Both the position numbers and the translations under genes were made by a program. Shown here piece by piece: positions 13,606-22,789 of a stretch of 64,000 bases of DNA. How positions within the stretch are numbered: position 1 is the first letter of the stretch; each line of letters opens with the position of its first letter. Origin of the DNA: an uncultured Nitrososphaerota archaeon (GTDB lineage: Archaea > Thermoproteota > Nitrososphaeria > Nitrososphaerales > Gagatemarchaeaceae); contig OY969807.1 of assembly GCA_963703285.1 (NCBI GenBank), forward strand, positions 2,080,001-2,144,000, given 5' to 3'. The notes under the pieces were generated by a model. That model did not search any database. It was not told the DNA's origin and was given only the letters and a program-made list of their open reading frames with translations.

Positions 13606-13906
13606 TGTCTATGAGCCTACTGGGCTCCCCGCCCAACCATGGCCCGTCTCACCAAGCGCTGGATAGTGAATGGCGCTCTAGAAAAATCATACCATCCGCA
13701 TCTCGAGTTCGGAGAACGCAGCAGCAACACCGCTATCTCCCCCGATGACAGCCACACCCCTGTTACGGGTGGACGCCAGGTCGGGCGAAGGGTCCCGCCA
13801 CCAACTCTCTTCTCCTCCGCACGTTCTCATTTTTGATACAAAGCCAAACAGGTACGGGGAATTGGACAAATACAAGAAATATTTCGGTCGGTCATCGGGA
13901 ATTGTG

Positions 13907-14695
13907 TTGACAGAAAATAAGAAAAGTGCGAAAGGCGTTCGGAAGTCAGTTAAACCGAACAAGACATTTGCAAAGAAGGTAGGTGTTTCCGCCGGACCAA
14001 TCGACACGGTCCTGGAGACGAAGGTTACCAAGCGTACCCTCCTCAAGGGTACCATTGCGGCGGGCGCCGTCGTGGGCGTATCCGCCCTGGCGCTGCGAGG
14101 GGGTGTCCTGCAGACCTCCGGGAGCGGCGTACAGCAGACCTCGTCGGTGCCGGCTGCGCCTGCGGCTGCAGCGCCCAACCCGTTCGCCGCCCAGACGGTG
14201 ACGTTCACGGTCAACGGAACCAGCTACACGGTCTCGGTCGAGCCGAGAGACATGCTCGCCAACGTTCTCAGGGACGACCTCGGGCTCGTCGGCACAAAGA
14301 TGGGGTGCAACAGGATGGCGTGCGGCGCCTGCACGGTCCTGATAGACGGCGAAGCCCACGAGGCGTGCCAGTACCCGGCGATAAGGGCAGGCGGCCACAC
14401 GATACTGACGACCGAGGGGGGCGTCCCAACGACGACGTCGACTGGCACAGTCACGGTGCCGGCTGACCCGGTGATCGCCGCTCTTCAGGCTGCGTGGGTC
14501 CAGAACGACGGAGGCCAGTGCGCCTTCTGCGGCGCCGGCAACATCATGGCCGCCGCGGCGCTGCTGAAGCAGAACACGAGCCCCACGGTGGCTCAGATAC
14601 AGCAGGCCCTCTCGGGCAACCTCTGCCGGTGCGGCAACTACCTGGCCATAATCGCCTCCGTGCAGGCCGCGGCGACGGCCCTTGGAGGTGCTTGA
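13907..14695 (+). CDS. Xanthine-oxidase-family 2Fe-2S subunit with Tat-like leader (PaoA-like)
   Basis: GTKMGCNRMACGACTV, QCAFC, GNLCRCG; leader TKRTLLKG plus hydrophobic segment; TTG start inferred. Confidence 0.9.
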   Translation: MTENKKSAKGVRKSVKPNKTFAKKVGVSAGPIDTVLETKVTKRTLLKGTIAAGAVVGVSALALRGGVLQTSGSGVQQTSSVPAAPAAAAPNPFAAQTVTFTVNGTSYTVSVEPRDMLANVLRDDLGLVGTKMGCNRMACGACTVLIDGEAHEACQYPAIRAGGHTILTTEGGVPTTTSTGTVTVPADPVIAALQAAWVQNDGGQCAFCGAGNIMAAAALLKQNTSPTVAQIQQALSGNLCRCGNYLAIIASVQAAATALGGA

Positions 14696-14699
14696 GAGA

Positions 14700-17081
14700 A
14701 TGTCTTCCTCCTACTCACTGGTGGGCAACGCCAGCGTCACGAGACGGGGCCTCATCAACAGGATCAACGGGACGGGGCACTTCACAACCGACATCTCGGC
14801 GAGCGACATCGGGGCCTCCAGCATGGTCTACTTTGGCCTGGTGATGAGCCCCTACCCGAGCGCGCTGATCAAGAGCATCGACGTGAGCAAGGCCGAGGCG
14901 GCGGGATACACGACGCTGACCGCAGCCGACCTGCCTGCATACAACTACGTTAACGAGGGTCGAAATTTCCTGCCCCTGGCGAGGGACTCGGTCCTCTTCG
15001 CCGGCCAGCCGGTGGCGGCCGTCGCCTCGACCGACCCGGACACCATCACGGACGGCATCGACCTCGTGAACGTGGCCTACGAGCCGCAGCCATACGTCTT
15101 CGACGCGGAGGAGGCGCTCAAGCCTGGCGCACCTCAGCTCTACCCGGGAGGGAACAGCCTGACGGGCCCAGAGCCGGTCACGATTTCCTACGGCGACGTC
15201 GAGACGGCCCTCTCCGCGGCTGACGCTGTGGTCACACAGAGGTTCGACTACCCAATCCTCCAGCACTTCCAGATCGAACCGAGCGGCTGCGTCGCCTGGT
15301 GGACGGGAGGCACGCTCTACACCTATCAAAGGTCCAACTACGCCTTCGGCGACCAGTCTAGCCTGGCGAGCTACTTCGGGATCCCGGTCTCGGACGTGGT
15401 CTGCAGGGTGGCCCTCGGAGGCTCAACCAACTCCATGAACGGCGGGATGTTCGGCAACGCCGTGAACGAGAACTCGCTCGTCATCGCTGCTGCGATGTCC
15501 CAGAAGGTCGGCGCGCCCGTCAAGTGGGTTGGCACTCGCTTCGCGGACGCACGCTCGACAAACAGCAGGTTCCCCACTAGGTGCTACTGCGCGTTCGGCG
15601 GGACGAAGGCAGGCCTCCTGACAGCGATGCAGGTGAACATGTACTACAACATGGGCGCCGTCGGAGGCAGCATGACGGACGGCGCTGACGACTTCTACAA
15701 CACGTACGTCGTCCCGAACCTCGAGATCAACCAGTACGTCGTAAGCACCAACGCGTACAGCATGGGCACCCCAATGAGGGACGTCGGAGAGAGCCAGACC
15801 CACTTCGCGATGGAGTCGACCATAGACATGCTCGCGGATCAGCTCGGGATCGACCCCGTCACCTTCAGGCTCAACAACATGAGGACGAGCGCCACAGCCA
15901 CGGACCCCGTGGCCGGCACGCCCTACAGCACTCTCCCCCAGCCGCAGGTCTTCAACTCTGCAACGAGCGCCTTCAACTGGACGTCGCTCTGGAAGGGCTG
16001 GGGCGTCCCGAGCTCGACGAGCGGCTCCATCCGCTACGGCGTCGGCCTGGCTCTCGAGAGCTGCAACAAGGGAGGTTACATGCCTGTCTGCTGGGGCCAG
16101 ATAACCGTCAACCCCGACGGGAGCGTGGCCATCTACAACGGACAGTCCGACCAGGGAGGGGGCACCACCACGACGCTTCCCCTGCTGGCGGCGCAGTTCA
16201 TCGGACTCAGCTCGCTCGAGAACGTGACATACTACTCTGGCGACACGTCGGTCACCTCTGACTCCGGCGGCACCTTCGGCAGCCTGGGCACGATGACCGG
16301 CGGCCTCGGGGTGCTATCCGCCGCCACCGCCCTCGGACGCGCGTGGTTCCCGATAGTGGCGGCAGCCCTGGCCCCCGGCACCAAGGCGTCCAACCTCGCG
16401 TTCGGCGGTGGCATCGGAGCCGGCTTCAGCGGCGTCGGCGGGAGCGTCTCGCCGCAGCCCTCGGGAATAATCTACGACACGACGAACCCCTCCAACCAGA
16501 TGACCTTCCAGCAGGCGGCGGCGCTCCTCAGCGCGCCCCTCACAGTCACCGGGTACGGGCCCCCCTCGGAGTTCCCGGGCCTCGCGTTCACGCACCGCGA
16601 CTCCGGGACGAAGATCGCGATGGTGGCCGTCGACACGCTGACCGCCGACGCCGAGGTCGTGAGCGTCGTGAGCGCGCTGGACATAGGCCGCGTCGTCTTC
16701 GCGAAGGGAGCCCGGTCCCAGCTCGAGGGCGCCTTCATCGGCCTCGGGATGGGCGAGGCGCTCTTCGAGGAGGTGCTCAACGACCCGACGACTGGTCTCG
16801 CCCGTTCCGGAAGCTACCTCAACCCGAACTACCTCGACATGAAGATACCGACCATCATGCAGGCACCCTCCAGCTTCACGTGCCTCCCCTACGAGAGCCT
16901 CGACCCGACGGGCCCGTTCGGGGCCAAGGGGATGGGCGAGGACTCCCTGTGCGCCACCTCGGCCGCGATAGCGAACGCGATGAGCAACGCCCTGGGCGGC
17001 TACAGGTTCACGAGCGTCCCAATGAGGAAGGAGGACATTGTGGCCGCGCTGCAGTGGATGCAGGCGAACGGGAAACTCTAA
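14700..17081 (+). CDS. Xanthine-oxidase-family molybdopterin-binding subunit (PaoC-like)
   Basis: SPYPSALIKSIDVSKAE, GQPVAAV, LGIDPVTFRLNN, SDQGGG, GPFGAKGMGE with catalytic Glu. Confidence 0.92.
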   Translation: MSSSYSLVGNASVTRRGLINRINGTGHFTTDISASDIGASSMVYFGLVMSPYPSALIKSIDVSKAEAAGYTTLTAADLPAYNYVNEGRNFLPLARDSVLFAGQPVAAVASTDPDTITDGIDLVNVAYEPQPYVFDAEEALKPGAPQLYPGGNSLTGPEPVTISYGDVETALSAADAVVTQRFDYPILQHFQIEPSGCVAWWTGGTLYTYQRSNYAFGDQSSLASYFGIPVSDVVCRVALGGSTNSMNGGMFGNAVNENSLVIAAAMSQKVGAPVKWVGTRFADARSTNSRFPTRCYCAFGGTKAGLLTAMQVNMYYNMGAVGGSMTDGADDFYNTYVVPNLEINQYVVSTNAYSMGTPMRDVGESQTHFAMESTIDMLADQLGIDPVTFRLNNMRTSATATDPVAGTPYSTLPQPQVFNSATSAFNWTSLWKGWGVPSSTSGSIRYGVGLALESCNKGGYMPVCWGQITVNPDGSVAIYNGQSDQGGGTTTTLPLLAAQFIGLSSLENVTYYSGDTSVTSDSGGTFGSLGTMTGGLGVLSAATALGRAWFPIVAAALAPGTKASNLAFGGGIGAGFSGVGGSVSPQPSGIIYDTTNPSNQMTFQQAAALLSAPLTVTGYGPPSEFPGLAFTHRDSGTKIAMVAVDTLTADAEVVSVVSALDIGRVVFAKGARSQLEGAFIGLGMGEALFEEVLNDPTTGLARSGSYLNPNYLDMKIPTIMQAPSSFTCLPYESLDPTGPFGAKGMGEDSLCATSAAIANAMSNALGGYRFTSVPMRKEDIVAALQWMQANGKL

Positions 17082-17094
17082 GTGGTGAAGACAG

Positions 17095-18108
17095 ATGAGA
17101 AACGAATTAGCGCAATTCGGATACCTACAGCCAACATCGGTCAGTGACGCGGTCTCGCTCCTGACCAAGTACGGCGGTCAGGCGAGGGTCATCGCCGGAG
17201 GTACCGACCTACTCTACCAGATGAAGGAGCACATCGACCTCCTCACGCCGCAGTATGTCGTCGACATCACCGGGCTCAACCTGAGCGGCATAAGCTACAG
17301 CTCGAGCTCGGGACTCACGATAGGAGCCACCACCAACGTCTCAGACCTGCTCAACAACTCCGACGTCAAGGCGAACTACGGTGCGCTCTACGGCGCGGTC
17401 TCCGGCCATCCCGCGCAGATCGCCAACCAGGCGACCGTGGCGGGCGACATCTCCCAGGAGGTCTGGTGCTGGTACCTGAGGAACAACTACGACTGCTGGC
17501 GCAACGGCGGGAACGTCTGCTACGCACCCAACGGCGACAACCGCTACTACCACAGCCTCTTCGGCGGCAACCTCTGCTACGCAGTGCACGCGGGCGACAT
17601 AACGCCCGCCCTCTTCGCCCTCAACGCCACCGTGACCATCCAGGGACCAGGGGGTTCGACGACCGAGTCGATGGACTCCTTCATGCCCGGCGTCACCATC
17701 GTCGACGGCCGCGTCAAGGAGAACAGCCTCCGATACAACGAGATCGTGACCTCGATAAACGTCCCCGCCCCCGCATCCGGCTCGGTCAGCGCCTTCTACA
17801 AGGCGAGCGATAGGAACGCAATCGACTTCGCACTCGCCAACTGCGCGGTCAGCGCGACCCTGAGCGGGACCACCGCCTCGAACGTGAGGCTGGTCCTGGG
17901 AGGGGTAGCCAACAAGCCCATCCGCGCCACGGCCGCAGAGAGCTACCTGAACGGACAGCAGCTCAACGCGAGCGTGATATCGGCCGCTGCCACCAAGGCC
18001 CTCTCCGGTGCCACGCCGCTGACGACGGGCACGGGGAACGCCTTCCGGGTCTACATCGCTCAGGGGGTCGTGCAGAAGGCCCTCAGCAGCCTGGTCAATA
18101 GTTCATAA
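17095..18108 (+). CDS. Xanthine-oxidase-family FAD subunit with 4Fe-4S insert (PaoB-like)
   Basis: IAGGTDL, QIANQATVAG, CWYLR...C...C...C insert as in PaoB/HcrB, AIDFALA. Confidence 0.92.
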   Translation: MRNELAQFGYLQPTSVSDAVSLLTKYGGQARVIAGGTDLLYQMKEHIDLLTPQYVVDITGLNLSGISYSSSSGLTIGATTNVSDLLNNSDVKANYGALYGAVSGHPAQIANQATVAGDISQEVWCWYLRNNYDCWRNGGNVCYAPNGDNRYYHSLFGGNLCYAVHAGDITPALFALNATVTIQGPGGSTTESMDSFMPGVTIVDGRVKENSLRYNEIVTSINVPAPASGSVSAFYKASDRNAIDFALANCAVSATLSGTTASNVRLVLGGVANKPIRATAAESYLNGQQLNASVISAAATKALSGATPLTTGTGNAFRVYIAQGVVQKALSSLVNSS

Positions 18109-18131
18109 GGCACGAGTGCAGTACTCCCTGT

Positions 18132-18377
18132 ATGAGTTCCAGCAGCGCCCCGGAGCACCTCCCACCGGAGGTGCTCACCATCCCCGAGATGCTCGAGAGG
18201 TACAAGGACCACTGGGTGGGCATCGAGGTCACCGAGAGGGACAAGAGCCTCCAGCCCGTGAAGGGGAGGGTCCTCGCGCACGACCCAGACCGATACGGGT
18301 TGAGGGAGAAGACATCCAGGTACCCAGAGGTCTGTATCTTCTATGCTGGTGAGCCGCCATTTCCTCTGCTCCTGTGA
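18132..18377 (+). CDS. DUF5678-like small protein, copy 1
   Basis: LERYKDHWVGI...GRVLAHDPD pattern; ends FPLLL; stop overlaps the GTG of the next gene. Confidence 0.75.
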   Translation: MSSSSAPEHLPPEVLTIPEMLERYKDHWVGIEVTERDKSLQPVKGRVLAHDPDRYGLREKTSRYPEVCIFYAGEPPFPLLL

Positions 18378-18808
18378 CCGGGGCAGCAACACTCGAGCAT
18401 GCCTTCGGGAAGCTCCCCACGGTTTTCGCTAGGGTCAAGGGACGGAACGGCAAGGTAAGGGAGTACAGTGCGCTGGTCGTCCCTACCTCTGAGTTCTGCA
18501 TACTCCCGACCGTCGACGCCTACAGTTTGGGATACCCTGAGGTCATCTCCAACAACTCGCGCATCCCACCGAAGAATTCGATGGTGCTCGCCACCTACTC
18601 GGGGTACACGAGAGGGCTCCCCATCAGGATACCCCAGGTCGACATCGGCAGCATCTCGTCCAAGGACGTCGAGTTCCTGGTGATCGACCTGCCGCAGGTC
18701 ATCGGCTTCGACATGGTCCTCGGGCAGTCACTGCTCAGGTGCATGAGGGTGGAGATGGACTTCTCGTCGCGCACGCTGAAGATAGAGGGAGCCGCGGGCC
18801 CGAGATGA
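18374..18808 (+). CDS. Retropepsin-fold protein A lacking the catalytic Asp, copy 1
   Basis: ALVVPTSEFCIL in place of ALxDTGA; FDMVLGQSLL retropepsin C-terminal motif. Confidence 0.75.
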   Translation: MTGAATLEHAFGKLPTVFARVKGRNGKVREYSALVVPTSEFCILPTVDAYSLGYPEVISNNSRIPPKNSMVLATYSGYTRGLPIRIPQVDIGSISSKDVEFLVIDLPQVIGFDMVLGQSLLRCMRVEMDFSSRTLKIEGAAGPR

Positions 18809-19248
18809 GGTTCGCGCTGAACAAGCAGATGAGCCTGTTCGCGAAGGTCAAGGGACCGAACGGCCACGTCAGCGAGCTCAACTGCCTGCTCGACCCCAAC
18901 ACACCATTCACGGTTCTCTTCACGCGGGACGGGGTGAACCTTGGCTTCCCGGAGGCGGCCCTCCGTCCACGCGACTGGCAGAAGCTACACCCGGATCGTG
19001 TGGTCTACATCGCCGGGCTCCGGGGCATCGAGATGACGACTGCCCTTGAACTCACCGAAATCAGGCTGGGCGACCTCGTCGCCAGGAACGTGAAGACAGT
19101 AGTGTTGGAGATGGGCCTGCCGCGGATGTTCCCGTTCGAGATGATCCTGGGACGCTCCTTCCTCGACAACTTCAAGCTGACGCTAGACCCGCAGAAGGGT
19201 GTCCTTAAGCTTGCGGAGCCGCGGAAGCCGACGAAGCCGTTCAAGTGA
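18805..19248 (+). CDS. Retropepsin-fold protein B (DPN instead of DTG), copy 1
   Basis: CLLDPNTPFTV, MILGRSFLDNFKLTLD; ATGA overlap with the upstream gene. Confidence 0.75.
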   Translation: MRFALNKQMSLFAKVKGPNGHVSELNCLLDPNTPFTVLFTRDGVNLGFPEAALRPRDWQKLHPDRVVYIAGLRGIEMTTALELTEIRLGDLVARNVKTVVLEMGLPRMFPFEMILGRSFLDNFKLTLDPQKGVLKLAEPRKPTKPFK

Positions 19249-19325
19249 GGAGGACGGTCAGCAACCCAAACCTTCTCGGGCAACAGCTTAACTACGCCGA
19301 CGGTGCTCGACCTGCCGCGGTTGGC

Positions 19326-19781
19326 ATGAAGGTAAGCTCGATCGCTCGCAGTTCGGCCGTCATTGCCGTAGTCCTCGTGCTGGGCTTGGGCCTCTTCCTA
19401 TTCGCGAATCGCACGCAGCCCTATTCGGTCACGCCGACCACCACCTCGACGGTCCCTGTCGCTCCTTCGTCCACCAATGCCGCTGTGATGAGGTTCACGA
19501 GTCCGAACGCGAGTGTGCCGCTCGAGGTCGGCGAGGTCCTCACAATCTCGGGCTTCATCACGCCCGCGCCCTCTCTGCCTGACTACGTTGTCGTCCAGGC
19601 CGGAGAGTCAGACTCCACAACTGCCATTGACGGAGTCGCCGTCCCGTTGGCGCCGGATGGTTCGTTCTCCTACTCTATCGTAGTGAGCCCGCTGTGGGAC
19701 GCAGGCCAGTACCTCATAACGGTCACCGATTCCAGCGGAGTGACAGGAATCTCGAGCTTCTTCATCCTTCCTCAATCTTGA
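19326..19781 (+). CDS. Membrane-anchored secreted beta-rich protein
   Basis: N-terminal TM, Thr/Pro linker, DGSFSYS...GQYLITV Ig-like strand pattern. Confidence 0.6.
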   Translation: MKVSSIARSSAVIAVVLVLGLGLFLFANRTQPYSVTPTTTSTVPVAPSSTNAAVMRFTSPNASVPLEVGEVLTISGFITPAPSLPDYVVVQAGESDSTTAIDGVAVPLAPDGSFSYSIVVSPLWDAGQYLITVTDSSGVTGISSFFILPQS

Positions 19782-19798
19782 CGACAGCGTCGATGATT

Positions 19799-19983
19799 CG
19801 CGCCACGGCCGCAGAGAGCTACCTGAACGGCCAGCGGCTCAACGCGGGCCTGATTTCGAAGGCAGCGTGAAAAGCCCTCTCTGGCGCGACGCCACTCACA
19901 TCGGGGACGGGTAACGCGTTCCGCGTCTTCCTGGCCCAGAGAGCAGCTCGAACGCACTCACGAACCTGACCAACACTTCATAA
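19799..19983 (+). pseudogene. Remnant of the 3' end of a paoB-like gene (copy 2)
   Basis: 19799-19830 is identical over 32 bp to 17923-17954; the rest is similar but has an in-frame TGA and indels. Confidence 0.85.
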
Positions 19984-20006
19984 AGCACGAATCAAGACAG
20001 TCGCAC

Positions 20007-20252
20007 ATGGGCTCAACCAGCGCAACGGAGCGTCCCCCACCAGAGGAGCTAACCCTCGCCGAGATGTCCGCGAGGTACAATGACCGATGGGTCGCCATCG
20101 AGGTCACCGAGAGGGACGAGAACCTGCAGCCGGTGAAGGGGCGCGTCCTGGCAGACGACGTCGACCGTTACAACCTGAGGCAGAAGACCACCAAGTACAG
20201 CGAGGTGTGCATCTTCTACACCGGCGACCCACCTTATCGTCTCCTGCTGTGA
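20007..20252 (+). CDS. DUF5678-like small protein, copy 2
   Basis: 81 aa paralog of 18132..18377 (WVAIEVTERDENLQPVKGRVLA; ends YRLLL). Confidence 0.8.
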   Translation: MGSTSATERPPPEELTLAEMSARYNDRWVAIEVTERDENLQPVKGRVLADDVDRYNLRQKTTKYSEVCIFYTGDPPYRLLL

Positions 20253-20687
20253 AGCAGACACAGACCTCGATCGTCAACCGACTCCAGAGGTTTACCCTGG
20301 GCCTTCGTTCGGCTCACCGGCCGGATGGGGTCGTGAGGGAGTATCAGGCCCTCGTCTCTCCGACATCGGAGTGCAGCGTGGTCCCCAAGGTCGACGAGTT
20401 CCGCCTGGGCCTACCCCCGGAGGCGGTGATAGCCAGCAACGGAGTACTCTCTAAAGGCATGGTGTCCTTGTCAGTTACACTCGTTCGGACGAGGGGCTAG
20501 CTTAAAGATGGCTCGGATTGACATAAGCGGAATGACGTTCAGAGATGTAGAGTTCATGGCCTTTGACCTCCCACCGTCCGCCGCTCATGACGTCGTCCCC
20601 GGACCGACCCTACTGAAGCATCTCCAAACCCACTTGGGCCTCACATCGCGCTCCACTAGGCTTCAGGAGGCTTGCGCCCCTCAATGA
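20249..20687 (+). pseudogene. Retropepsin-fold protein A, copy 2 (frameshifted)
   Basis: VREYQALVSPTSECSVVPKVD in one frame ending in TAG at 20500; the homologous C-terminal half (RIDISGMTFRDVEFMAFDLP) continues in another frame. Confidence 0.75.
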
Positions 20688-21181
20688 AGTTTGAGCTTAG
20701 GGAGCCGATGACGGTCTTCGCCAAATTGAAGGGACCGAAGGGAGCGGTGCGGGAACTCAGAGCCCTGATGGACTTCAACACCTCCTTCTGCCAGATGTTC
20801 ACGAAGGACGCCTTGCAACTGGGGTTCACCGAAGGGGTTCTGCGCCCGCGCGATTGGCAGAGGATTCACCCAACGCAGGTGCCCTACATCTTCGGCTTCC
20901 GAGGTATAGAAAGGGGCATCCTGATGAAGATGCCAGAGATTTCCGTCGGGAGACTCACTGCAAGGGACGTCGACGCGATGGTCACTGACCTCGACCTGCC
21001 GAGGTTGCTCCCCGTCGAGCTGATTCTTGGCCGTTCGTTCTTGGACAACTTCAGGCTGACGGTGGACGGTCCAGAGGGAACCATCTCACTGGACGCTGGC
21101 AAATCGGCAAGCGGCGCCGTTCGGAAGCGCACTCCGCCCAAGTCGGCCATTCAGGGTCGACCCAAGACAGCAGCCCCCTGA
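20684..21181 (+). CDS. Retropepsin-fold protein B, copy 2 (DFN instead of DTG)
   Basis: FAKLKGPKG, ALMDFNTSF, LRPRDWQRIHP, LILGRSFLDNF; clear paralog of 18805..19248. Confidence 0.8.
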   Translation: MKFELREPMTVFAKLKGPKGAVRELRALMDFNTSFCQMFTKDALQLGFTEGVLRPRDWQRIHPTQVPYIFGFRGIERGILMKMPEISVGRLTARDVDAMVTDLDLPRLLPVELILGRSFLDNFRLTVDGPEGTISLDAGKSASGAVRKRTPPKSAIQGRPKTAAP

Positions 21182-21339
21182 GGTAGAGAGGAAGAGCCAT
21201 CCCTGGGTGGCAATGGTCGGCCGGGCGCCCAGGGTCAATAGGTTACCTCGTAGGACTTCGAACGCTTGCGAACTGATAAGAGAAAGTCGATAACAATAGC
21301 CGCGCTCAGTTGAGTACGTCAAAACCGTTAGCGATTCCA

Positions 21340-21421
21340 ACGGGCACCGGCAACGCGTTCCGCGGCTACATAGCCCAGGAGCGGTGAAGAACGCGCTGCG
21401 AGGCCTCCCAACAGTTCATAA
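21340..21421 (+). pseudogene. Remnant of the 3' end of a paoB-like gene (copy 3)
   Basis: ACGGGCACCGGCAACGCGTTCCGC...TACATAGCCCAG...AGTTCATAAGG aligns with about 18025-18110. Confidence 0.75.
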
Positions 21422-21444
21422 GGCGAGCCTTCCCGGTCGACGGC

Positions 21445-21690
21445 ATGAGCCAGACAGGCGCTGCGGAGAGCGCCAAGCCAGAGGAGGAGACGCTCTCCCA
21501 GATTTCCGAGAGGCACAAGGACAGATGGGTGGCGATCGAGGTCACGGAGAGGGACGCGAACCTGCAGCCAGTAAAGGGGCGCGTCGTGGCCGAGGATGTC
21601 GACCGGTACAGGCTCAGGGAGAAGATAGCGAAGTACGCCGACATCTGCATCTTCTACGCTGGCGAGTCGCCATATCGTTTGCTCCTGTGA
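21445..21690 (+). CDS. DUF5678-like small protein, copy 3
   Basis: 81 aa paralog (WVAIEVTERDANLQPVKGRVVA; ends YRLLL). Confidence 0.8.
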   Translation: MSQTGAAESAKPEEETLSQISERHKDRWVAIEVTERDANLQPVKGRVVAEDVDRYRLREKIAKYADICIFYAGESPYRLLL

Positions 21691-21821
21691 CCGCGCCCTC
21701 TCCGCTATACGAGCAGGCATTCGGGAGGCCAGCGCAGTCTTCAGCCCACTACTCTAGAGAAATCACTTTCGGCGACCTCCCCCAAGACTCGATTAGTTTC
21801 AGTCCCCTATGTTCATTATAG
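21687..21821 (+). pseudogene. Retropepsin-fold protein A, copy 3 (internally deleted remnant)
   Basis: VTAPSPLYEQAFGRP matches the copy 1 start (MTGAATLEHAFGKLP); EITFGDLPQ resembles VEFLVIDLPQ. Confidence 0.55.
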
Positions 21822-21968
21822 CCTTGCAGCTGCGCTCTTGGTGTATGACCGAGAAGAAGAACGGCCCTGAACGGAAGCTCAAGCCCGAAGACTACGAGAT
21901 TTACCACGACTCCATTAGGCGTAACCCACTTCCTGCCGCCGAAGAGATGCAAGACGTGTGAGGACTGA

Positions 21969-22211
21969 ATGAACAGCGTAATCCTCGAGTGCCCTAGATG
22001 CCTCAAGATGTTCATGGTCTCCACGTCCAGGGCGATCCAGGTGGGCGAGCGGACTTGGGGCACGAGGTGCAAGTGCGGTCACATCATCGAGTTCAGCTTC
22101 GACTACATGGACCCTATCGAGATTTGGGCGCAGCCGACCGTTGCGAACAGGATGAGGAAGATTGAAGGACACCCGGTGAGGGTGCAGGGGCTGACGTACA
22201 CGAAGGGCTGA
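21969..22211 (+). CDS. Small zinc-ribbon protein
   Basis: CPRC...CKCGH; GAGG upstream. Confidence 0.6.
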   Translation: MNSVILECPRCLKMFMVSTSRAIQVGERTWGTRCKCGHIIEFSFDYMDPIEIWAQPTVANRMRKIEGHPVRVQGLTYTKG

Positions 22212-22282
22212 AATCGGGAGGGCTTGGTCTTCTCTGTGCCCGGTGGTGGAACCCTTATAGAGAACTACGTCCACTTTGAATC

Positions 22283-22789
22283 ATGGCAGGAAGACCGACC
22301 TCCAGCCATTACCCCATACGTTCCCCGAAAATCTCTAGGGTGGACAAAGCGATACTGAAGGTGCTCCTCGAACCGGATGGGAACCTGTCGACCCAGGCCC
22401 TGGCCGAGAAGCTCGGGGTCCCGCTGTCCACCATCCACCGCAGGCGAAAGCACCTCGAGAACATGTACCTCGACATCACCTACTCTCTGAGGCTGAGGAA
22501 CCTAGGGTTCAGGCGGATAGACTTCTTCCTCTTTACGGGAGGAGGCAACACCGCGGACATAGGGCACGAGCTCCTGAAGCACAAGGAGGTCGTCTCCGTC
22601 GGCAGGTCCGTGGGGGAGCACACCATAGACCTCAGGGCGGAGGCGATCATAAAGGACAGCGCCCAGCTGCTCGACCTTCTCGAGGCTATGAAGGCCATGC
22701 CGAACGTGAGAGACGTCATCTGGAGCGAGATAGTGGACGTCATAGGCAAGAAGAGGTCGATCCCGTCCGAAGTCATCGACTCGCTCTAG
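22283..22789 (+). CDS. Lrp/AsnC family transcriptional regulator
   Basis: DKAILKVL...LAEKLGVPLSTIHRRRKHLE HTH plus RAM-like C-terminal domain; CTTATAG TATA upstream. Confidence 0.88.
   Translation: MAGRPTSSHYPIRSPKISRVDKAILKVLLEPDGNLSTQALAEKLGVPLSTIHRRRKHLENMYLDITYSLRLRNLGFRRIDFFLFTGGGNTADIGHELLKHKEVVSVGRSVGEHTIDLRAEAIIKDSAQLLDLLEAMKAMPNVRDVIWSEIVDVIGKKRSIPSEVIDSL

Follow-up and report, generated by a model that had tools for sequence, protein, structure and literature searches.

Why should a gene for an 81-residue protein and two genes for retropepsin-like proteins stand behind an operon for a molybdoenzyme that is apparently exported from an archaeal cell? The question is raised by a locus in the window analysed here, that is, the whole stretch of 64,000 nucleotides at positions 2,080,001 to 2,144,000 of contig OY969807.1 (assembly GCA_963703285.1), from an uncultured Nitrososphaerota archaeon of the family Gagatemarchaeaceae. 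The locus contains a paoA-paoC-paoB operon, named after its likeness to PaoABC of Escherichia coli, followed by a trio of genes (small, A and B), and parts of this arrangement recur twice downstream; the three tandem units are numbered 1 to 3 and their genes accordingly (small1, A1, B1 and so on; Table 1). Helpers of exported molybdoenzymes, such as TorD, DmsD, NapD and PaoD, are well studied in bacteria and hardly in archaea. An earlier interpretation made from the letters alone (the sequence-only reading) saw in the repeats an accessory system of exported molybdoenzymes or relics of ancestral pao operons, and also an antitoxin-like or substrate/adaptor array in which the small protein outlives its decaying partners. 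The analysis reported here favours, with a rough probability of 0.55, a domesticated and probably non-catalytic protease cassette that serves as a cytoplasmic accessory module of the exported molybdoenzyme.

Association of the trio with pao-like operons

The position of the trio is constant. The genome is a single contig of 2.25 Mb, and a tblastn search of it with all parts of the arrangement revealed six paralogous paoA-paoC-paoB operons, with a small gene behind every one (6/6) and A and B as well behind five of the six; one locus has two small-A-B units. Intact copies amount to 8/9 for small, 4/8 for A and 7/8 for B. The sixth operon, on the minus strand at ~964.8-969.3 kb, is a near-twin of the one in the window (PaoC and PaoB 95-99% identical, PaoA 87%) and has a frameshifted small gene only, with no A or B; it looks like the outcome of a recent operon duplication or of gene conversion. 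At ~772.7-775.0 kb, the paoC of another operon is split in two frames by an apparent frameshift, and its small, A and B genes look intact.

The same order is found in other genomes. PaoB was used to search 40 sampled relatives, and each locus was scanned with profiles of the small and A/B families. Among the testable paoB genes at ≥61% identity (six from the genome itself, nine from relatives), small is the next gene in 15/15 and A/B are present too in 14/15. A scan of one genome per prokaryote species with an 8-row alignment of the small family yielded 24 loci, in records titled Nitrososphaerota, Nitrososphaerales, Ca. Gagatemarchaeum, Conexivisphaerales and Ca. Caldarchaeum. In this set, paoC-paoB lies directly upstream in 23/23 loci with upstream sequence, and A then B lie downstream in 24/24, with a single-piece match in 24/24 for A and 22/24 for B. 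The two collections overlap and their counts are not additive. The linkage persists down to 54% PaoB identity and 42-45% identity of the small protein, and the conservation of gene order to 54% PaoB identity is the chief reason to suppose that trio and enzyme work together.

The triad that the sequence-only reading wished to see outside the window is thus present behind paoB in other Nitrososphaerota genomes, and its idea of an accessory system gains from the 15/15 close paoB genes that are followed by the trio and the 23/23 loci preceded by paoC-paoB. The decay of partners, in contrast, fails as a trait of the module: because A is unbroken (single-piece matches) in all 24 loci of other genomes, decay is a trait of this paralogue-rich genome.

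The small protein and the probable origin of the cassette

The three small proteins of the window, described earlier as intact 81-residue proteins with a common core, are indeed so: they are 60-68% identical and share IEVTERD..LQPVKGRV, CIFY and a terminal LLL. Their genes are under purifying selection, with pairwise ratios of non-synonymous to synonymous substitution rates (dN/dS) of 0.26-0.42, below the value near 1 that would have counted against selection on the small protein; every pair of small genes in the genome for which the ratio could be computed falls within 0.09-0.48. No model of Pfam, NCBIfam or PADLOC matches the small protein. The Pfam model of DUF5678 (PF18929, gathering score 23.2 bits) matches 0/8 copies from the genome even at E ≤ 10; searched genome-wide, it finds two other genes, ordinary DUF5678 genes away from the pao-linked small genes, and the one examined is followed by a protease gene with DSGA.

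The small family is nonetheless related to DUF5678. It has 295 members at E ≤ 0.001 in a set of 5.8 billion proteins; the named ones are all 'hypothetical' and none carries a Pfam domain. A full HMMER pass over 1.84 billion representatives returned 130 proteins, and a Pfam scan of 54 of these 130 gave weak DUF5678 matches in four, one at 23.7 bits against the cut-off of 23.2. Among the 54 is P0303, a natural fusion of a small-like domain and a retropepsin domain with DTGA, and the C-terminus of the small protein corresponds to the point at which P0303 passes from the one domain to the other. A search of 8000 candidates for fused small-family relatives of greater length came up empty, which is weak evidence. 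True DUF5678 proteins were matched in 53/301 genomes of the phylum, and 24 of them were aligned for a profile; an hhalign comparison of 82 small-family sequences with these 24 gave a probability of 92.5% (E = 4.7e-7) over 45 columns, the small family carrying an insertion of 11 residues (T-x-R-D-x-x-x-Q-P-x-x-G). On such profile evidence, the earlier label 'DUF5678-like' holds as remote homology and not as family membership, since the Pfam model misses every copy. The Protein Atlas places the small protein at 0.88 to a cluster auto-named 'putative DUF5678', a lead only. Some distant relatives of the small protein (P0211, P0287, P0288 and P0297) are tandem fusions of two small-like domains, and P0242 has a weak HicB-family match.

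The model of small1 computed with AlphaFold2 (AF2; predicted local distance difference test score, pLDDT, 84.9) has the order beta-alpha-beta-beta-alpha-beta. Foldseek found nothing convincing for it in the PDB (best E = 1.3), and a wide VIA-align comparison reached Z = 3.8 at best, with deaminase-like and FdhD rows at chance level. A reading of the small, A and B sequences, with no predictor run, showed no signal peptide or hydrophobic segment.

Stand-alone loci point to a probable origin of the trio. In the phylum, a retropepsin-like gene is next to a true DUF5678 gene in 18/30 loci, and these partners have kept the catalytic motif D[TS]G[AS] in 18/18. The pao-linked form has in common with this cassette its gene order with overlaps of four nucleotides, a small gene placed directly before the retropepsin-like gene (units 1 and 2 of the window and 24/24 loci), and a small alpha/beta protein that has a W-[VI]-A motif, ends in a hydrophobic tail and precedes a protein of the clan AA fold. 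It differs in the 11-residue insertion, the duplicated protease, the lack of D[TS]G[AS] and a context that is fixed behind paoB, whereas the neighbours of stand-alone pairs vary and include PIN-domain, integrase and transposase genes. The trio would thus derive from a widespread two-gene cassette of a DUF5678 protein and a retropepsin-like aspartic protease, the protease gene of which would have been duplicated in this lineage into A and B, both now without the canonical motif, and the cassette would have acquired a permanent place at the 3′ end of the pao-like operons of a single clade. A distant relative from another family has a small gene and a single protease-like gene (DPAA), with a pao-like operon ~9.5 kb off; this locus is an intermediate form of the cassette. 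A literature search gave no published function for the DUF5678 and retropepsin cassette.

The same ancestry has been considered in terms of a selfish toxin-antitoxin-like cassette, with a DUF5678-like antitoxin and a retropepsin-like toxin, that landed once behind an ancestral pao operon and was passed on with it as operons were inherited and duplicated; on this view, orphan small genes would be antitoxins that outlive decayed toxins. The mobile company of the stand-alone pairs, the better survival of small (8/9) than of A (4/8) in the genome and the weak matches of stand-alone proteases to the PADLOC defence candidates PDC-M08B and PDC-M52B all suit this explanation. It is nevertheless rather unlikely, because the context is fixed (23/23 and 15/15 behind paoB) where mobile cassettes vary, and because A has lost the presumed toxin site and B has a changed one, yet A persists in a single piece in 24/24 and B in 22/24 loci elsewhere. 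Moreover, PADLOC has no match for the small protein and one of only E = 6e-4 to 0.016 (PDC-M08B) for A and B, and a literature search found no link of retropepsin-like proteins to antitoxins. The antitoxin array is hence the part of the sequence-only reading that finds no support, in view of a fixed, non-mobile context and of protease-like partners devoid of the canonical catalytic motif; the accessory system, the pao relics, the DUF5678 kinship and the retropepsin fold are supported, and the substrate or adaptor alternative may apply.

Fold and active site of partners A and B

A and B are paralogous (28-34% identical), and 80 proteins of the large set belong to their family. Retropepsin hidden Markov models (HMMs) score below their cut-offs with both, at best 24.0 bits for PF13975 (cut-off 28.2) and 22.8 bits for TIGR02281 (57.95), and A1 has weak sub-threshold matches to PF13975 and PF13650. 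A profile of the A/B family found nothing significant among PDB sequences, DDI1/2 appearing at E = 0.23-0.36. For the AF2 model of B1 (pLDDT 92.7), Foldseek returns 194 PDB hits at E ≤ 0.001; at their head stand Rickettsia APRc (E = 2.3e-7), DDI1/2 and HIV-1 protease. According to this model, B1 has a retropepsin fold, in line with what had been proposed from the letters; the folding was of B1 only, and A1 is assigned by its 28-34% identity to B.

The active sites are non-canonical. At the catalytic position, A1 reads VPTS and has no Asp, while B1 reads DPNT and B2 DFNT. In the pao-linked loci, D[TS]G[AS] is found in 0/24 A and 0/24 B proteins; Asp is retained in A in 16/24, and B has mostly D-[FP]-N, with D-F-N in most relatives. 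One A copy elsewhere in the genome retains DTGA. The dN/dS ratio of B1 against B2 is 0.26. In clan AA, the Thr/Ser and Gly of the catalytic loop are needed for catalysis.

It could be asked whether B, as a homodimer or together with an Asp-bearing A, is still an aspartic protease that processes a Pao subunit, for example in the long Lys-rich region before the export motif of PaoA, with the small protein as inhibitor or pro-segment. Such a role would agree with the Asp that B proteins of most loci and 16/24 A proteins have kept, with the DTGA copy of A, with the ~40 residues that precede the motif in PaoA paralogues, and with a small protein that ends where its fused relative runs on into the protease domain. 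The D-F-N signature, however, is without the Thr/Ser and Gly of the catalytic loop, the Asp of A is not conserved and A1 of the window has none, which makes continued proteolysis improbable. A prediction of the complex of A1, B1 and small1 scored 0.47 against 0.78 for the control and weighs neither way on binding.

The molybdoenzyme and its putative export signal

All Pfam domains of the 2Fe-2S, flavin adenine dinucleotide (FAD) and molybdopterin-binding subunits score above cut-off. The NCBIfam equivalogs for Pao subunits are all below cut-off in the window (NF008514, 108 bits against 322; NF041671, 173 bits against 1180), and the top NCBIfam match of paoB, 4-hydroxybenzoyl-CoA reductase beta, is below cut-off too.

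E. coli PaoABC is reported to be exported by the twin-arginine translocation (Tat) pathway, PaoB and PaoC hitchhiking on PaoA (PMC4273604). Tat-type signals are also found on most PaoA paralogues of the archaeal genome. In the window, the putative signal TKRTLLKG occupies residues 95-102 of the longest open reading frame (ORF) of paoA and is followed by a linker rich in S/T/P; the true start is probably further downstream than that of the longest ORF. The Pfam model TAT_signal matches it at E = 0.029, below cut-off, and it has K-R rather than R-R, a replacement seen in the window PaoA and in its near-twin copy. The PaoA paralogues of the genome carry SRRxLxKG, and TIGR01409 scores above cut-off in two of the four other paralogues and 0.3 bits short of it in a third. 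PaoA proteins have ~40 Lys-rich residues ahead of the Tat motif and a stretch rich in S/T/P behind the hydrophobic region; in distant pao-like operons that lack the trio, the PaoA signals are short and canonical.

That small, A and B are extra structural subunits leaving the cell on the enzyme by Tat hitchhiking would fit their co-encoding and translational coupling with the subunit genes and the precedent of PaoB and PaoC, but it is very improbable, as several operons of the genome have intact subunit genes beside a broken A and we know of no xanthine-oxidase-family enzyme with such extra subunits.

Proposed role of the trio

The constant operon position, the purifying selection, the fold of B1, the non-canonical active sites and the Tat-type signals on most PaoA paralogues are findings; the accessory-module reading goes beyond them as follows. 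The product of the paoA-paoC-paoB genes would be a molybdenum hydroxylase of the xanthine-oxidase family, built of three different subunits and exported by Tat, and small, A and B would be cytoplasmic proteins. A and B would pair like retropepsin monomers to give a pseudo-dimer, the asymmetric cleft of which would hold one peptide without cutting it, the likeliest ligand being the hydrophobic C-terminal tail of the small protein (PYPLLL). The complex of A, B and small would act on the enzyme in the cytoplasm before export, at the stage of assembly, cofactor loading or Tat escort, in a role that would be analogous, not ancestral, to that of NapD, TorD or PaoD. A more specific version, put forward tentatively and doubtful as it stands, is that small and an A/B pseudo-retropepsin heterodimer constitute a new, non-homologous class of maturation or export-escort factors for Tat-dependent molybdoenzymes, which would have arisen through the domestication of a protease cassette and in which the dead protease cleft would clamp the tail of the small protein or the unusually long signal region of PaoA until the enzyme is assembled.

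Several facts weigh against an accessory role, or narrow it. The paoB-like genes at 34-46% identity have neither small nor A/B within 1.5 kb (0/13), and PaoA, read in four of these 13 distant operons, carries a Tat-type signal in 4/4 (SRRNFLK, RRKFLG); since distant Tat-type operons do without the trio, it meets no general need of Tat export. The conserved gene order could in part reflect the vertical inheritance of one ancient insertion. In the genome itself, A is broken in 4/8 copies beside intact-looking operons, so that A may be dispensable or act in trans. Two matches to XdhC/PaoD-type chaperone genes lie elsewhere in the genome, and the role of molybdenum cofactor insertion is thus not vacant. 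The fold of the small protein gives no hint of function, because no solved structure matched it. Lastly, the Asp that B conserves in most loci may leave room for some catalysis.

History of the tandem units

The three diverged tandem units, each beginning with a paoB 3′ end, are as first described and have a DNA identity of 71-75%. In self-BLASTN, unit 1 and unit 2 align at 17920-18377 and 19796-20252 (74.7% over 459 nucleotides, E = 4e-82), unit 2 and unit 3 at 19899-20252 and 21338-21690 (73.4% over 357 nucleotides, E = 2e-53), and unit 1 and unit 3 at 18025-18413 and 21340-21729 (71% over 396 nucleotides, E = 2e-42); a repeat search gave the same repeat families. Unit 1 is a complete six-gene operon, paoA-paoC-paoB-small-A-B, at 13745-19248 and perhaps to 19781. 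The coupling of genes reported from the letters was verified by direct reading: GTGA overlaps join small1 to A1, small2 to A2 and B1 to the next gene, and ATGA overlaps join A1 to B1 and A2 to B2. The fate of the partners is likewise as stated, B being intact twice and A intact in unit 1, frameshifted in unit 2 and reduced in unit 3 to ~39 nucleotides after small3 (21690-21729).

Units 2 and 3 are best read, from their coding remnants, as the surviving 3′ parts of two more paralogous operons in tandem, now relics. The last 48 codons of paoB reappear at 19796-19939, interrupted first by an in-frame TGA and further on by a frameshift (a deletion of one nucleotide). Over 47 codons, tail 2 and paoB tail 1 are separated by 18 synonymous and 9 non-synonymous substitutions (dS 0.72, dN 0.094, dN/dS 0.13), and small1 differs from small2 by a similar dS of 0.75. 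Because the changes are mainly synonymous, tail 2 must have been coding during most of its evolution, the operon having been lost recently, which bears out the earlier idea of relics of ancestral pao operons. These operons would have been functional until recently, after which paoA, paoC and most of paoB would have been deleted. The triplication is old, since the nearest relative of each small gene is not one of its window neighbours but a sequence from another genome or metagenome (72% identical for small1, 84% for small2 and 78% for small3), while small2 is 68% identical to small1 and small3 60-67% identical to its window neighbours. At least four disabling lesions are found in the pseudogene parts (tails 2 and 3 and A2, ~714 nucleotides) and none in small2, B2 and small3 (990 nucleotides), for which ~5 would be expected at equal rates; this suggests that the orphan genes are still under selection, although the numbers are small and the recognition of pseudogenes introduces a bias.

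The repeats, which might have been an artefact of assembly, are not: short-read contigs from four soil-metagenome DNA runs span the unit junctions. The four runs belong to one study, possibly on the source sample of the assembly. One contig spans 19740-20200, and another, of 1928 nucleotides, spans 20289-22197 without any indel, which places the A2 frameshift in the reads themselves. In one run, a contig of 297 nucleotides links 17922 (paoB codon 275) to 19799 through 32 identical bases and omits 1876 nucleotides; it is either a real recombinant without unit 1 or an artefact of k-mer (de Bruijn graph) assembly.

The motif TTCATAAGGC (TTCATAA(G/A)GC) lies at the paoB stop, ~25 nucleotides before the small-gene ATG, in all three units (18102-18111, 19976-19985 and 21414-21423). 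A promoter for the small gene in the retained paoB tail was considered and dropped, because the motif is missing upstream of the six other genome copies of the small gene.

Gene organization of the window

The features of the locus are listed in Table 1. The product of the optional fourth gene has an N-terminal hydrophobic helix, a linker rich in T/S/P and a beta-rich domain, and matches no Pfam or NCBIfam model. A homologue 40% identical to it comes after B in one relative. Relatives of its C-terminal domain are encoded at no fewer than six other sites of the genome; two of these sites directly follow the two small-A-B units near 1.22 Mb and lie on the strand opposite to them. Downstream of unit 3, positions 21969-22789 hold an ORF of 80 codons with a weak zinc-ribbon match and a gene for a regulator of the Lrp/AsnC type.

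Table 1. Features of the pao-like locus and its tandem units (window coordinates)
Feature	Position	Strand	Basis or remark
paoA-like 2Fe-2S subunit	13745..14695	+	Pfam Fer2_2 and Fer2
paoC-like molybdopterin-binding large subunit, xanthine-oxidase family	14682..17081	+	Pfam MoCoBD_1, MoCoBD_2, Ald_Xan_dh_C
paoB-like FAD subunit, Cys-rich insert	17095..18108	+	Pfam FAD_binding_5, CO_deh_flav_C
Tail 1, last 63 codons of paoB	17920-18108	+	Repeated part of paoB
small1, 81-residue DUF5678-like protein, hydrophobic C-terminal tail PFPLLL	18132..18377	+	ORF, hhalign, AF2
A1, retropepsin-like paralogue A, intact, 144 codons	18374..18808	+	Weak PF13975/PF13650, paralogy to B
B1, retropepsin-fold paralogue B (model), intact, 147 codons	18805..19248	+	AF2 and Foldseek
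Membrane-anchored or secreted protein gene, optional fourth gene after B1	19245..19781	+	ORF, sequence features
paoB tail relic 2, pseudogene fragment from paoB codon 276	19796..19985	+	BLASTN, repeat search
small2, intact 81-residue gene	20007..20252	+	ORF, alignment
A2, partner-A pseudogene, GTG start overlaps small2 stop	20249..20687	+	ORF and sequence; +1 frameshift 20498-20508
B2, intact partner B, DFNT, ATGA overlap with A2 frame	20684..21181	+	ORF and sequence
paoB tail relic 3, ~28 codons, frameshifted	21338..21422	+	BLASTN, repeat search
small3, intact 81-residue gene	21445..21690	+	ORF, alignment
5′ remnant of third partner-A gene	21687..21729	+	Unit 1/unit 3 similarity 39 nucleotides beyond small-gene stop

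Relation to known systems and significance

Three known systems invite comparison. With APRc of Rickettsia conorii (PDB 5c9b, 5c9d and 5c9f), the RVP domain of DDI1/2 and HIV-1 protease, B1 shares its modelled fold (Foldseek E = 2.3e-7 to 8e-5, template modelling score to the target 0.6-0.75) and a conserved C-terminal L-G motif; A and B differ from them by the lack of DTG/DSG and by HMM scores below cut-off, and the existence of two paralogues suggests a heterodimer. The operon of E. coli PaoABC-PaoD (PMC4273604) is comparable in that it encodes the three subunits of a xanthine-oxidase-family enzyme and ends with accessory gene(s); its 2Fe-2S subunit bears a Tat signal, and a Tat-type signal is probable on the archaeal counterpart. 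The archaeal operons differ in their order A-C-B, in the sub-threshold scores of the NCBIfam Pao equivalogs and in accessory genes that are not XdhC/PaoD-like, homologues of XdhC being encoded elsewhere in the genome. Like NapD, TorD and DmsD, the members of the trio may be small proteins that stay in the cytoplasm and share an operon with an exported molybdoenzyme, but no similarity of sequence or fold to them was detected.

What is new is the duplicated A/B form, without the canonical motif and fixed behind one clade of exported molybdoenzyme operons. A literature search found nothing on this arrangement of trio and pao genes, and the main text of a genomics paper on the Gagatemarchaeaceae (PMC10640624) does not contain the terms xanthine, aldehyde, molybd-, carbon monoxide, aspartyl or Tat. 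The pao-linked loci give the unstudied DUF5678/retropepsin cassette its first constant functional context and offer a clear case of protease-fold proteins retained after the loss of the canonical catalytic motif. In soil Nitrososphaerota, which are abundant and uncultured, an operon-fixed trio unlike TorD, DmsD, NapD or PaoD accompanies an enzyme family that has expanded to six or more copies; if it is true that the trio acts on the enzyme, attempts to produce these archaeal oxidoreductases in a laboratory host would probably have to include it.

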